A stretch of DNA of 33,382 bases. It comes from Thermoplasmata archaeon. GTDB taxonomy: Archaea; Thermoplasmatota; Thermoplasmata; GCA-020350865. The notes under the pieces were generated by a model, which did no database searches, was not told the DNA's origin, and was given only the letters and a program-made list of their open reading frames with translations. The position numbers and the translations under genes were made by a program. The stretch spans positions 3,282,700 to 3,316,081 of the forward strand of contig CP070751.1 in NCBI GenBank assembly GCA_020348445.1, in the 5' to 3' direction. Below are positions 13,915 through 19,411 of the stretch, piece after piece; position 1 is the stretch's first letter, and each line of letters starts with the position of its first letter.

Positions 13915-14364
13915 ATGAAGAGCATCGATGATTTGGACCAAAAGATCCTAAGAATGTTGTTAAAAGATGCATCTGTCAATTACGAAACAATAGCAAACGA
14001 GGTGGGCACATCCTTGGGCACGGTCCACAACAGGATCAAGCGCATGAAAGAGGAGAAGATCATCGCCAGGATAATTCCAGAGCTTGATGCAAAGAATCTC
14101 GGATTCGACATCTGCGCTTTAATCGATGTCAGGATAAAAGGAGGCCATTTGGAAGAACTTCAAAAGAAGTTCCTTAATTACGACAATGTCTGCTCCATCT
14201 ATGACATCACAGGGGAGTACGATACCACATTCGTTGCTAAATTCAAAACCACAGAAGACCTCAACAAATTTGTAAAAGAGCTTGCAGGTCAAAAGTATGT
14301 TCTTAGGACCTCCACAAAATTGGTGCTTAACGTGATTAAAGAAGGATTCGTTCCCAAGATATGA
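13915..14364 (+). CDS. Lrp/AsnC-family transcriptional regulator
   Basis: IDDLDQKILRML..DAS...IANEVGTS.GTVHNRIKRM HTH; C-terminal YDITGEYD RAM domain; RBS gaggtg. Confidence 0.95.
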   Translation: MKSIDDLDQKILRMLLKDASVNYETIANEVGTSLGTVHNRIKRMKEEKIIARIIPELDAKNLGFDICALIDVRIKGGHLEELQKKFLNYDNVCSIYDITGEYDTTFVAKFKTTEDLNKFVKELAGQKYVLRTSTKLVLNVIKEGFVPKI

Positions 14365-14408
14365 TGTCACCTCCTTAAATACCCTATCTGATAATAAAGG
14401 GGGATTTC

Positions 14409-15782
14409 ATGAAGAAAAAAGATACTAGGAAATATTCATTGTTTGCAGGTTGTTTGATTCCAAGCAAATTTCCATTCATAGAAAAGGCCTCACGATCTGT
14501 CCTTCAGAATCTTGGACTGGAATTGGATGATATAGAGGAGGCAAGCTGCTGCCCAAATCAGATGGCAATAAAGAGTTCAGATGAGGCGCTATGGTTTGCT
14601 TTAGCCGCAAGAAATCTATGTCTAGCCGAAAGGAAAGGACATGACATACTGACACTGTGCAATGGATGTTACGATACACTAAAAACCGTGAACTCCAGGC
14701 TGAAGTCCGACGATAAATTCAGGGAAAAAATCAACAAAATGCTGGCAGGATTCGGTCTTGAATTTGCAGGGTCTATCGATGTAAAGCATATCGTACAGGT
14801 TCTACATGATGATGTAGGCCCAAACGCAATCGAAAAAAAGGTGATATTTCCGTTAAAAGGGATAAAATGCGCTTCCTTTATGGGGTGCCACGTAAGAAGA
14901 CCCATGGACCATATGGGCTTTGACGATCCAAATGAACCAGCATACCTGGATGATCTGATAAGGGTGATGGGCGGAGAGACATTAAAATATTCTGAGAAAA
15001 ATTCCTGCTGTGCAGGAGGTCTTTCAATTGGAAGAAAGGATGACGTGGTTCCCGCGGCAAGAAGGGTGCTTCACTCTGCAAGGGAGGAAGGAGCCTTAGC
15101 AATTGTCGTTTCCTGTCCCTTCTGTTTTGCCCAGTTCTTTAGAAGTGAAAAAGAGATTCAAGATATCTATTCTGAGAATATCAGATTCCCTGTGTTCTAT
15201 CTAACAGAGTTATTAGGCCTGACATTTGGGATATCCCCAGGAGAACTGGGTTTACCCATGCACATCGAGATGAGTACAGGTGGAGAAAAGGAATTTATCA
15301 ACACATTACTTGGAGAAGGAGTAGATGAATCGTTTTTCTCTGATAAAGTGACAAAGGAACAGTTGGTTCTGTGCGCAAAATGTAAAGCCTGCGTCGACGA
15401 CTGCCCAACTGCGATGACGACATCTGATTACAAACCCGAAGAGATACTAAAACTTGTTATTGAGGGTAGGGCAGACGAAGCTTGCACAAGAGAGGACATA
15501 TGGTTCTGCATGAACTGCCATGAATGCTCCCAGGAGTGTCCCCAGGGTTTTGGCATGGTGAAGTTGATAATTAAGTTGAAGAACCTGGCGGCAGCGAAAG
15601 GAATCTACCCAGAAGCTGTGGGCCACCGGATATCGGAGCTTCACGAATCAGGTTATTCCTTCAAGATGGATGAAAAAATAAGGGAAGAGATGGAGCTTCC
15701 CAAGATAAACTTGCCAGATGTGGCAAAACTTAGAAAACTCATGGAAGAGGTAGAAGAAGATTCAGAAAAAGGAGGCAAGTGA
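14409..15782 (+). CDS. hdrB-hdrC: fused heterodisulfide-reductase-like protein: HdrB (two CCG domains) + HdrC (2x[4Fe-4S])
   Basis: CCG1: GC...SCCP...LCNGC; CCG2: GCH...SCCAG...SCPFC; then CAKCKACVDDCP and WFCMNCHECSQECP, all in one frame. Confidence 0.9.
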   Translation: MKKKDTRKYSLFAGCLIPSKFPFIEKASRSVLQNLGLELDDIEEASCCPNQMAIKSSDEALWFALAARNLCLAERKGHDILTLCNGCYDTLKTVNSRLKSDDKFREKINKMLAGFGLEFAGSIDVKHIVQVLHDDVGPNAIEKKVIFPLKGIKCASFMGCHVRRPMDHMGFDDPNEPAYLDDLIRVMGGETLKYSEKNSCCAGGLSIGRKDDVVPAARRVLHSAREEGALAIVVSCPFCFAQFFRSEKEIQDIYSENIRFPVFYLTELLGLTFGISPGELGLPMHIEMSTGGEKEFINTLLGEGVDESFFSDKVTKEQLVLCAKCKACVDDCPTAMTTSDYKPEEILKLVIEGRADEACTREDIWFCMNCHECSQECPQGFGMVKLIIKLKNLAAAKGIYPEAVGHRISELHESGYSFKMDEKIREEMELPKINLPDVAKLRKLMEEVEEDSEKGGK

Positions 15783-15783
15783 C

Positions 15784-17070: not shown

Positions 17071-17072
17071 GC

Positions 17073-18608
17073 ATGCCTGAGAAAATGGAAGGCATCAGGA
17101 TAGAGATACCATCACGATATAAGGTGAACATTGATAGGGAAAAATGCAAGATATGCAAGCGTTGCACAATAAACTGCACGTTCGACACATTATCATTCAA
17201 TGGAGAGCGCATAGTGGCAGATCATGACAATTGCGTGGCATGCCAAAGATGCTCTGCAAAATGTCCACAGGAGGCAATAACCATAATTGACAATCAAATG
17301 GCATTTCCTTTTCATGCAGCTTATGATGAAAGAATAAGGAGAATCGGATGGGAGCAGGCATCAACAGGGGGAGTGATGCTGGCCTCATGCGGAAATGACC
17401 TGCCCTATCCCAGCATCTTCGACGACCTCGTGCTCGATGCGGCACAGGTTACTAATCCTGCAATAGATCCCTTAAGAGAGCCTATAGAGACCAAGTGTTT
17501 CCTCGGTGCAAAACCCGCCAAACTGGAATTTACAGAGACCGGCGATGAGATCACCTTGAAAACCAACCTTCCCCCGAATATCGAGCTCTCTACCCCGATT
17601 ATGGTGGGTCAGATGTCCCTGGGAAGCATCAGCTACAATGCCCAGATAGCCTTGTTTAAGGCGGCATTGGAGGTGGGCACCCTTGTAGGGACTGGAGAAG
17701 GGGGTCTTCATCCAGATTTCTACAAGTACGGTAAGATCATCAACAGCGAGGTGGCAAGCGGCAGATTTGGCGTTGATGCAAATTACCTCAAGAAGGTTGC
17801 TGCACTTGAAATCAAAATAGGCCAAGGAGCAAAGCCGGGCCATGGAGGACATTTACCAGGAGAGAAGACTAGCAAGCTCATATCAGAAACAAGGATGATT
17901 CCCAAGGGTACAGATGCTCTTTCACCCTATCCGCATCATGATATCTACAGCATAGAGGACCTACAGCAGTTGATATTTGCTTTAAAAGAGGCGACAAGGT
18001 ACAGGGTTCCAGTAGGTGTTAAAATCGCAGCCGTGCACAACAGCGCTGCAATTGCTTCGGGCATGGTGAGGGCAGGTGCCGACTTCATAACCTTGGATGG
18101 ATTCAGAGGAGGTACAGGCGCAACACCCAGGATAATAAGGGATCATGCGGGTATTCCAATAGAGCTAGCAATTGCTACAGTGGATCAAAGGCTCAGGGAG
18201 GAAGGAATCAGGCATAAGACAACCCTCTGTGCAGGAGGCAGTATACGATATTCGGCTGACCTTGTAAAGGCTCTTGCATTGGGTGCGGATGTGGCCATGA
18301 TCTGTACACCAGTCTTGATAGCAATGGGCTGCAGGGTGTGTCAGCAATGCCACAGGGGAACTTGTGCTTGGGGAATAGCAACCCAAAATCCGGCGTACTC
18401 ACAAAGACTCAACATCGAGGTTGGGGCAAGGAGAATCGCGAACCTGTTTCACGCTTGGACAGAGGAGCTGAGAGAGATCTGCGGTGCAATGGGCATCGAT
18501 TCAGTTGAGAGCTTTATTGGCAACAGAGACAGGCTCAGATATGTTGGGCCCAATCCCAAAATTGCAGATATCATGGACGTCAAACATGCGGGCGAGGCCT
18601 GGGGGTGA
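17073..18608 (+). CDS. gltB2: glutamate synthase FMN-binding subunit with N-terminal 2x[4Fe-4S] ferredoxin domain (archaeal GltB domain 2)
   Basis: CKICKRC...C and CVACQRC...CP; MSLGSIS, GTGEGG, EVASGRFGV, EIKIGQGAKPGHGGHLPGEK, DALSPYPHHDIYSIEDL, CRVCQQCHRGTC.WGIATQ. ATG 17073 after ggaggtg (track uses GTG 17067). Confidence 0.95.
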   Translation: MPEKMEGIRIEIPSRYKVNIDREKCKICKRCTINCTFDTLSFNGERIVADHDNCVACQRCSAKCPQEAITIIDNQMAFPFHAAYDERIRRIGWEQASTGGVMLASCGNDLPYPSIFDDLVLDAAQVTNPAIDPLREPIETKCFLGAKPAKLEFTETGDEITLKTNLPPNIELSTPIMVGQMSLGSISYNAQIALFKAALEVGTLVGTGEGGLHPDFYKYGKIINSEVASGRFGVDANYLKKVAALEIKIGQGAKPGHGGHLPGEKTSKLISETRMIPKGTDALSPYPHHDIYSIEDLQQLIFALKEATRYRVPVGVKIAAVHNSAAIASGMVRAGADFITLDGFRGGTGATPRIIRDHAGIPIELAIATVDQRLREEGIRHKTTLCAGGSIRYSADLVKALALGADVAMICTPVLIAMGCRVCQQCHRGTCAWGIATQNPAYSQRLNIEVGARRIANLFHAWTEELREICGAMGIDSVESFIGNRDRLRYVGPNPKIADIMDVKHAGEAWG

Positions 18609-18613
18609 ATGAT

Positions 18614-19411
18614 ATGGCAAAGAAGAAGATGGAAATCGATGCATTGGATGGGGATAAGAAACCTCTGCGCTACTGGGTCTTAAACGAGAAAATCCACAAT
18701 GCAGCAGACGATGGTGCAAAGCACATAGTGGTGAAGAATGTCCTGGGCCAGAGGTTCATTGCAGACTGCATGGAGCACAAGGATCTTAAAATCGATATTC
18801 ACGGAACTCCAGGAAACGATCTCGGCGTTTTTTTAAGCGGCCCCACAATCGAGGTCTTTGGTAGCTGCGAGGATCAGACAGGAAACACCATGAATGCCGG
18901 CACTATAATAGTACATGGAAATGCCTGGGATGTGACAGGCCTTGCCGCAAGAAACGGTAAAATCTTTGTCAAAGGAAATGGTGGATACAGAATAGGTATA
19001 CATATGAAGGAGTACCAAGACCAAAGGCCCATAGTGGTATACGGAGGATGTGTTAAGGAGTTCTTTGGAGAGTACATGGCCGGAGGGATTTTGGTTGCAT
19101 TGGGCATGAAAATAGGGAACAATAAAGTGGAGGAAGTCCCATCAAAAGAGGTAGTGAGAGGGAGCCTTGGAAGTGGAATTCACGGTGGTGCAATCTATGT
19201 TCGAGGTGAGGTTCCTGAGCATTACCTTGGTGTTGCTGCAAATATCCAGCCCTTTACTGATGATGATTTAAAATTACTTACTCCGATTCTAAAGGAATTT
19301 TGTAAATATTTTAAAATGCCCATAGAGAATATCTGGGAAAGGGAAATTACAAAGATAGCCCCTTCGTCTTCAAGGCCTTATGGTGCGTACTACAATCCAA
19401 GGACAGTTTGA
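18614..19411 (+). CDS. gltB3: glutamate synthase GXGXG-repeat subunit (archaeal GltB domain 3)
   Basis: NVLGQRFI, GTPGNDLG, GNTMNAG, GNGGYRIGIHM, FFGEYMAGG, GSGIHGGAIYVRG. ATG 18614 after ggggtga (track uses GTG 18605). Confidence 0.92.
   Translation: MAKKKMEIDALDGDKKPLRYWVLNEKIHNAADDGAKHIVVKNVLGQRFIADCMEHKDLKIDIHGTPGNDLGVFLSGPTIEVFGSCEDQTGNTMNAGTIIVHGNAWDVTGLAARNGKIFVKGNGGYRIGIHMKEYQDQRPIVVYGGCVKEFFGEYMAGGILVALGMKIGNNKVEEVPSKEVVRGSLGSGIHGGAIYVRGEVPEHYLGVAANIQPFTDDDLKLLTPILKEFCKYFKMPIENIWEREITKIAPSSSRPYGAYYNPRTV

Follow-up and report, generated by a model that had tools for sequence, protein, structure and literature searches.

A heterodisulfide reductase-like HdrB-HdrC fusion as the probable electron-input subunit of a split glutamate synthase in a Thermoplasmata archaeon

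The window considered here is a 33,382-nt stretch of the genome of a Thermoplasmata archaeon (GCA_020348445.1; contig CP070751.1, 3,282,700-3,316,081, or C1:3282700-3316081 in genome coordinates). Between positions 13915 and 19411 its + strand carries five co-oriented genes which, according to their open reading frames (ORFs) and their Pfam and NCBIfam matches, encode an AsnC/Lrp-family regulator, a fusion of homologues of the heterodisulfide reductase (Hdr) subunits HdrB and HdrC, and the polypeptides GltB1, GltB2 and GltB3 of a split archaeal-type glutamate synthase (Table 1). The electron donor of split archaeal-type glutamate synthases has, to our knowledge, yet to be established, although automatic annotation calls the enzyme NADPH-dependent by default. 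A preliminary description of this DNA had suggested that the HdrB-HdrC fusion (hereafter HdrBC) wires the enzyme to a thiol or to another Hdr-type electron source.

The operon and its gene products

The tight, co-oriented packing in the preliminary description is borne out by the ORFs and their junctions. The stop codon of hdrBC (TGA) is separated from the ATG of gltB1 by 1 nt and, with the likely ATG starts of Table 1, gaps of 2 nt and 5 nt precede gltB2 and gltB3; the longest ORFs of these two genes, which begin with GTG, instead overlap the preceding gene by 4 nt. A GGAGG-like Shine-Dalgarno sequence lies ahead of each start in the hdrBC-glt junctions. The spacer between asnC and hdrBC is 44 nt long, with a strong Shine-Dalgarno sequence before the hdrBC start, and the operon ends 24 nt short of a convergent ABC-2 permease gene. 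The top NCBIfam match of the asnC product is the haloarchaeal Lrp, under the cut-off of that family. As the locus is archaeal, a sigma-70 promoter scan is not applicable.

The HdrB-like part of the fusion comprises residues 8-286 and contains two CCG motifs of the form CX31-39CCX35-36CXXC, and the HdrC-like part (residues ~315-441) is a 2x[4Fe-4S] domain. In an alignment of fusions at 33-100% identity, the ten cysteines of the two HdrB noncubane clusters (C15, C47, C48, C84, C87; C160, C200, C201, C236, C239) and the eight in the two [4Fe-4S] motifs of HdrC (C322-C332, C367-C377) are invariant, as are the HdrB signature residues AARN, CNGC and HYGCH. The NCBIfam models for HdrB (TIGR03288, 268.8 bits against a cut-off of 345.15, residues 8-285) and HdrC (TIGR03290, 63.2 bits against a cut-off of 160, residues 321-441) both match the protein below their equivalog cut-offs. 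Against solved structures, a profile of the fusion family matched HdrB (8rvu_b, E 2.5e-99) and HdrC (5odc_C, E 6.8e-24). The AlphaFold2 model of the fusion has a mean confidence score (pLDDT) of 87 and superposes on the HdrB of 8RWN/5ODC with a root-mean-square deviation of 1.8-1.9 A (TMt 0.89-0.92); it also matches solved HdrC.

The three Glt polypeptides have the domains expected of a glutamate synthase. GltB1, an N-terminal nucleophile (Ntn) amidotransferase with 80% identity over residues 1-428 in the related loci L001-L003, has a candidate catalytic Cys53 in the motif ACGIAG, after a 52-residue leader which is conserved in close relatives and is probably removed by propeptide processing. 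GltB2 combines an N-terminal 2x[4Fe-4S] ferredoxin domain (C27-C37, C56-C66) with a flavin mononucleotide (FMN) synthase domain, near whose FMN site lies the cluster motif C422-X5-C428-X4-C433 together with C425; all 12 of these cysteines, eight in the ferredoxin domain and four by the FMN, are invariant in 26 sequences. GltB3 is a GXGXG-domain protein. Since the cluster cysteines of HdrB, HdrC and GltB2 are all invariant, the cofactor sites for an electron wire from HdrB to FMN are present. The contexts of the operon in other lineages, where glnA, amt and PII genes occur, are consistent with a glutamate synthase that forms glutamate from glutamine and 2-oxoglutarate. The strength of the matches to GltB, together with the ferredoxin domain and the linkage to glnA, led us to reject an identity as N-methylglutamate synthase (MgsABC).

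The gltB2 of the window is the only full gltB2 of the genome. A GltB-like pair at C1:8239-10219 was considered as a second glutamate synthase and rejected, as it has neither an amidotransferase nor a ferredoxin domain. The locus in question (L027, C1:7017-10219) encodes a divergent GXGXG protein and a 407-aa Glu_synthase-like protein beside a 283-aa small GTPase of the Ras/Roc family.

Profile searches of the whole genome place no GltD-type (Fer4_20), FrhB-like or MvhD/HdrA match within the window, as the preliminary description had stated, and no HdrA/MvhD or cytochrome (HdrE-type) partner gene was found in the operon or the window, where HdrBC is the sole CCG protein. The same families are abundant elsewhere. 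Genome-wide counts are about 21 CCG proteins, 22 MvhD/FlpD matches, seven matches over the Fer4_20 cut-off and three FrhB-like matches (FrhB_FdhB_C), the Fer4_20 and FrhB_FdhB_C matches all lying outside the window, so that the absence of these families from the operon is a local fact and not a property of the genome. Several ORFs of 1400-1600 aa contain a GltD-type Fer4_20 domain and at least two of them are also HdrA-like; they are comparable to the 'HdrL' of Desulfobacterium (PMC2702500). Of the possible partners and cofactors raised in the preliminary description, matches of the GltD, MvhD and HdrA types do occur in this genome, whereas ComA, a marker of coenzyme M (CoM) synthesis, was not found.

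Table 1. Positions within the window of the operon, its candidate promoter region and the adjoining convergent genes
Feature	Position	Strand	Evidence or remark
Candidate operon promoter region, AT-rich intergenic	13755..13914	+	TATA-like TTTAAATTATA ~35 nt before the asnC ATG; putative, from reading of the sequence only
asnC/lrp-family transcriptional regulator, 149 aa	13915..14364	+	HTH_AsnC-type and AsnC_trans_reg
Single-chain HdrB-HdrC fusion, 457 aa	14409..15782	+	Two CCG domains and a 2x[4Fe-4S] domain
HdrB-like part of the fusion	14430-15266	+	
HdrC-like part of the fusion	15351-15731	+	
gltB1, class-II (Ntn) glutamine amidotransferase subunit, 428 aa	15784..17070	+	GATase_2/GATase_6
gltB2, ferredoxin domain and FMN/synthase domain	17067..18608, likely ATG start 17073	+	Fer4_21; Glu_synthase (PF01645), 427.6 bits
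gltB3, GXGXG (GltB C-terminal) domain subunit	18605..19411, likely ATG start 18614	+	GXGXG (PF01493), 92 bits
ABC-2 permease and ATPase	19436-21664	-	ORFs and Pfam

Conservation of the four-gene linkage

The linkage between hdrBC and the glt genes is strongly conserved and not unique to this genome, uniqueness being a finding that would have spoken against the preliminary description. In all eight related genome loci the order asnC, hdrBC, gltB1, gltB2, gltB3 is kept as far as the contigs extend, at HdrBC identities down to 56%. Relatives with the same flanking arrangement of prefoldin beta, Pcc1 and asnC are metagenome-assembled genomes labelled Thermoplasmata archaeon or Methanomassiliicoccales archaeon. 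The linkage is kept at 35-38% identity in Candidatus Methanoperedens/ANME-2 (anaerobic methanotrophic archaea), and in a Bacillota lineage to which one source gives the family name Thermacetogeniaceae.

Metagenomes were scanned with a pattern made from the alignment of the fusions, in which the glt genes were not used, and 80 loci were recovered, 79 of them with a long match to the fusion. These loci span Thermoplasmata, ANME-2/Methanoperedens and bacteria. Wherever at least 400 nt were available downstream, gltB1 lies directly behind the fusion (66/66 loci); gltB2 was present in 57/57 and gltB3 in 43/43 loci. Because the loci were retrieved by their similarity to the fusion, the claim is limited to this orthologous family, which is always glt-linked, and does not extend to all HdrB-HdrC fusions. 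In an even sample of 301 Thermoplasmatota genomes, a full-length fusion was found in six, this one included and always directly beside a Fer4-type gltB2; among 301 Halobacteriota genomes it was found in three. In a tree that also held five neighbouring HdrB genes and the 20 remaining CCG paralogues encoded in this genome, the 26 glt-linked fusions came out as one clade (SH-aLRT 96), nested in the HdrB-type group and distinct from those 20 paralogues.

One of the three fusion-bearing genomes of the Halobacteriota sample carries the Thermoplasmata-type operon on a 15-kb contig (L115, G574:C282), with GltB2 88% and HdrBC 66% identical to those of the window, a case of either lateral transfer or mis-binning.

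The regulatory surroundings vary. The asnC gene is directly upstream of the fusion and in the same orientation in Thermoplasmata-type loci, and is divergent and beside glnA in L009 and L038. In other lineages amt and PII genes and ANTAR or OmpR-type regulators lie near the operon, and glnA is present in 24/79 metagenome loci. In a bacterial version (L070, 2557-7784) the operon follows fmt, rsmB, the gene of an OmpR-type regulator (Trans_reg_C) and glnA, so that the four-gene module stands under differing nitrogen regulators across phyla. When all ORFs of 94 fusion loci were clustered, no constant additional neighbour emerged beyond the glt genes, glnA, regulators and antisense shadow ORFs. In Methanoperedens-type operons a short ORF without Pfam matches separates gltB2 from gltB3 (L011, 11400-11780, 126 aa; L116, 12143-12370, 75 aa). 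We regard it as likely that HdrBC is a functional partner of the glutamate synthase.

Further genes of the window lie at 136-4353, 9411-10688, 12999-13754 and 21767-22995. They encode a 1405-aa surface protein with PKD repeats and a beta-propeller, a Cdc6/Orc1 homologue, prefoldin beta and Pcc1, and a NikR-like regulator whose gene is divergent from that of a ZIP transporter. The genes of prefoldin beta and Pcc1 also remain next to the operon in relatives.

Electron input and competing explanations

We put at roughly 0.55 the probability that hdrBC and the three glt genes encode the four subunits of an archaeal-type glutamate synthase that serves ammonium assimilation, with HdrBC dedicated to electron input and a dithiol as the substrate that it oxidises. 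In such an enzyme GltB1 would free ammonia from glutamine and GltB2 would form glutamate at its FMN site, with GltB3 as the structural GXGXG domain, and HdrBC would occupy the place that is taken in other glutamate synthases by GltD (NAD(P)H) or by an FrhB-like subunit (F420). The dithiol would be oxidised at two noncubane [4Fe-4S] clusters in the HdrB part; the electrons would then travel via two [4Fe-4S] clusters in the HdrC part and two in the GltB2 ferredoxin domain to the Fe-S cluster beside the FMN and to FMN itself, which would reduce 2-iminoglutarate. Hdr chemistry would here serve to oxidise thiols, as it does in thiol:fumarate reductase. For the Hdr-wired enzyme of the preliminary description, then, the conserved linkage, the position of the fusion in place of other redox modules and the invariance of every cysteine along the wire all speak in favour; its thiol donor receives indirect support from one bacterial operon described below, and a route through CoM and coenzyme B (CoB) is not supported in this organism.

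That the donor is a dithiol of any kind we consider an even chance. The genome is a single 5.16-Mb contig on which neither McrA (PF02249) nor ComA (PF02679) was found; at a marker-based completeness of 82% their absence is unproven. We treat the organism as a non-methanogen on this basis, and CoM/CoB as an unlikely donor in it. The likeliest dithiol here would be dihydrolipoate bound to a carrier protein whose gene lies elsewhere in the genome, rather than CoM-SH plus CoB-SH, and even so the naming of protein-bound lipoate as the donor is doubtful. The genome encodes five LplA-like ligases and five GcvH-like proteins that retain the lipoyl lysine, most of them clustered with HdrC-, HdrB- and HdrA-like genes at 1.246-1.250 and 4.56-4.59 Mb, and this clustering is repeated in two relatives. 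GcvH-like genes lie, for instance, at C1:1247019-1247465, 4562767-4563183, 4583502-4584005 and 4592923-4593351. Lipoyl carriers that work with Hdr-like enzymes thus appear to exist in this genome, as in the sHdr-LbpA system. The clusters at C1:1,246,040-1,249,575 and C1:4,576,180-4,584,865 combine genes for an LplA-like ligase, a GcvH-like carrier, HdrC and HdrB with very long ORFs of the HdrA/GltD-like type; they are reminiscent of sHdr-LbpA systems, although nothing around them points obviously to sulfur oxidation.

Support for a lipoyl donor comes also from the Bacillota lineage, where the operon consists of gltB3, Lpd (Pyr_redox_2 and Pyr_redox_dim), a 78-aa E2-type lipoyl domain with a TSKA motif, hdrBC, gltB1 and gltB2, beside glnA. 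It suggests a chain from NAD(P)H through Lpd and the lipoyl protein to HdrBC and the glutamate synthase; in this survey the arrangement is restricted to the one lineage, with seven loci. We estimate the potential of the 2-oxoglutarate plus NH4+/glutamate couple at about -0.14 V. Lipoamide, with an E0' of -0.29 V (PMC6067878), lies well below this value, so that transfer from dihydrolipoamide to 2-iminoglutarate would be downhill, and glutamine hydrolysis would add driving force.

Several observations weigh against a dithiol-oxidising HdrBC fed by a lipoyl carrier. In the phylogenetic profile GcvH-like genes are equally common in genomes with and without the fusion, and in two fusion-bearing assemblies, one of which may be a mis-binned contig, the GcvH-like match is weak or absent. 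The window holds no gene for a lipoate-binding protein, a lipoate ligase, Lpd or another thiol-related protein, and no gene of these kinds accompanies the operon throughout the 94 clustered loci. The two Biotin_lipoyl (PF00364) proteins of the genome were rejected as lipoyl donors, being biotin carriers with an MKM motif beside carboxyltransferase genes. A search for longer proteins in which HdrBC is joined to part of GltB yielded none, a weak piece of evidence. In Methanomassiliicoccales-like genomes gltB1-2-3 stands with no adjoining redox gene, and the GltB2 is 62-65% identical and has the same ferredoxin domain; as these relatives manage without HdrBC, the GltB2 ferredoxin domain may be reduced by free ferredoxin, and the enzyme might not need the fusion. 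Lastly, the Hdr genes found beside ANME-type operons fit other wirings as well.

Operons of this type differ in the redox module that they encode. At locus L020 (G009:C112, 7328-13781, - strand), glnA, a Fer4_11 ferredoxin (158 aa) and a Pyr_redox_2/Rubredoxin_C flavoprotein (423 aa) are followed by gltB1-2-3. Methanothermobacter (MTH193) is reported to have an FrhB-like 'subunit 4', a putative and unproven F420-dependent form (PMC3087415), and FrhB paralogues occur in glutamate synthase clusters of ANME genomes (PMC9012536). With differing operon-encoded modules at the same position the enzyme looks modular, the GltB2 ferredoxin domain being a common port and HdrBC one plug-in module. In three ANME-2/Methanoperedens-type loci, each with its own arrangement, HdrC, HdrB and an HdrA-MvhD fusion (744-770 aa) adjoin the operon (L042, 10845-14545; L047, 4199-7796; L057, 4072-7876). 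Such adjoining HdrABC-type genes could re-reduce a disulfide product or could indicate another wiring. A separate HdrB-like gene lies near the operon in 14 metagenome loci, among them these three, which were inspected in detail, and lipoate ligase genes do so in two ANME-type loci.

This other wiring is the most serious competitor of a dithiol-oxidising HdrBC, and we consider it rather unlikely. HdrBC would be an Fe-S adaptor to a separate flavoprotein module of the HdrA/MvhD or HdrL type, with ferredoxin, NAD(P)H, H2 or formate as the ultimate electron source. Thiol oxidation would then be absent, or a disulfide/dithiol would be the second substrate of a bifurcating or confurcating complex. 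HdrC docks onto HdrA in solved HdrABC complexes (PDB 5ODC). The HdrA-MvhD genes at the three ANME-type loci, the 22 MvhD/FlpD matches and the long Fer4_20 ORFs of this genome, some of them HdrA-like, would suit such an adaptor, but most loci, the window included, have no HdrA nearby, and the HdrA beside ANME-type operons brings its own HdrC and HdrB and so looks like part of a complete, separate enzyme. Moreover, the invariance at 35% identity of the ten noncubane cysteines and of AARN, CNGC and HYGCH argues for a conserved catalytic site over a mere relay.

Improbable, in our judgement, is an enzyme whose true donor is reduced ferredoxin, accepted by the GltB2 ferredoxin domain, with HdrBC either reducing some disulfide with the same electrons or gating the enzyme as a sensor of redox state or thiols. 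The Methanomassiliicoccales-like relatives, with their 62-65% identical GltB2 and no HdrBC in the cluster, speak for it. A side role of this kind, however, leaves the strict four-gene linkage across phyla unexplained, and other lineages put clear donor modules at the same position, be it ferredoxin with an NAD(P)H flavoprotein or Lpd with a lipoyl protein.

We find it hardly credible that HdrBC is merely adjacent to the glt genes, or that the complex is reversed for glutamate oxidation in a peptide fermenter, an option which the preliminary description had left standing. The genome encodes one glutamine synthetase and also a glutamate dehydrogenase, which could cover catabolism or assimilation. 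A chance adjacency, however, does not square with a linkage kept in 66/66 loci across phyla, and reverse operation is opposed by a GltB1 that looks intact and keeps its Ntn catalytic cysteine and by the glnA, amt and PII genes beside the operon in other lineages, which together point to assimilation. Reverse operation would also need glutamine synthesis without ATP, which is thermodynamically implausible. We give least credence to a CoM-SH plus CoB-SH:2-oxoglutarate/glutamine oxidoreductase as a direct analogue of thiol:fumarate reductase, for although the HdrB part is nearest to genuine CoB-CoM HdrB by TIGR03288 score and PDB matches, and such an enzyme is plausible for the ANME-2/Methanosarcinales versions beside HdrABC, the NCBIfam scores fall under the equivalog cut-offs, the same operon occurs in bacteria, and McrA and ComA went undetected on the contig of this organism.

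Relation to known enzymes and biological meaning

The split archaeal-type glutamate synthase, including the putative F420-dependent form of Methanothermobacter (PMC3087415), has the same three polypeptides as the present enzyme, a GltB2 with an N-terminal 2x[4Fe-4S] domain and an operon-encoded fourth redox subunit in place of GltD; here, however, that subunit is an HdrB-HdrC fusion with noncubane motifs and not an FrhB-like F420/FAD protein, which would imply a thiol and not F420H2 as donor. Bacterial GltB-GltD and ferredoxin-dependent glutamate synthase (PMC8097209) share with the present enzyme the glutaminase, ammonia channelling and the FMN/Fe-S synthase site, but in the present operon GltB is split into three genes, GltD is lacking, and an extra ferredoxin domain and HdrBC serve as the putative electron entry.

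On the Hdr side, the HdrB and HdrC of methanogen HdrABC (PDB 5ODC, 7BKB, 8RVU/8RWN) are homologous over their full length and agree with HdrBC in fold and in all cluster cysteines. HdrBC differs from them in its B-then-C fusion, its sub-cut-off family scores, the lack of HdrA in the operon, its genomic partner, which is a glutamate synthase, and the lack of detectable methyl-coenzyme M reductase or CoM synthesis in the host. The thiol:fumarate reductase TfrAB of Methanothermobacter likewise relies on a CCG/Fe-S module for the transfer of electrons from thiols to a flavoenzyme partner, where a metabolite is reduced; the partner and acceptor are different ones, TfrB (NF004898) matches the fusion weakly (63 bits), and the thiol would not be CoM/CoB here. 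Sulfur oxidation by sHdr-LbpA (PMC6067878) is a precedent for Hdr-like complexes with lipoate-binding proteins in organisms without CoM/CoB, but the glt operon lacks LbpA, sulfur transferases and HdrA, and the role proposed for it is anabolic electron supply and not sulfur oxidation.

The literature searched, which left most subscription journals out of reach, held no account of a glutamate synthase linked to Hdr or to lipoate. What is new here is probably a glutamate synthase with an undescribed electron-input subunit; the split archaeal-type enzyme itself is known. Whether this amounts to an undescribed class of dithiol-driven glutamate synthases, patchy but wide in anaerobic archaea and bacteria, in which noncubane Hdr chemistry oxidises protein-bound dihydrolipoate or another dithiol, is a more tentative proposition, to which we give somewhat less than even odds.

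If the proposed role is correct, HdrBC would name the missing input module of one widespread form of split glutamate synthase, and many proteins of non-methanogens that are now annotated as 'CoB-CoM heterodisulfide reductase subunit B' would be something else. Heterodisulfide-reductase chemistry would then reach from energy metabolism into biosynthesis, and thiol or lipoate redox pools would be tied to nitrogen assimilation in energy-limited anaerobes, methane oxidisers included.

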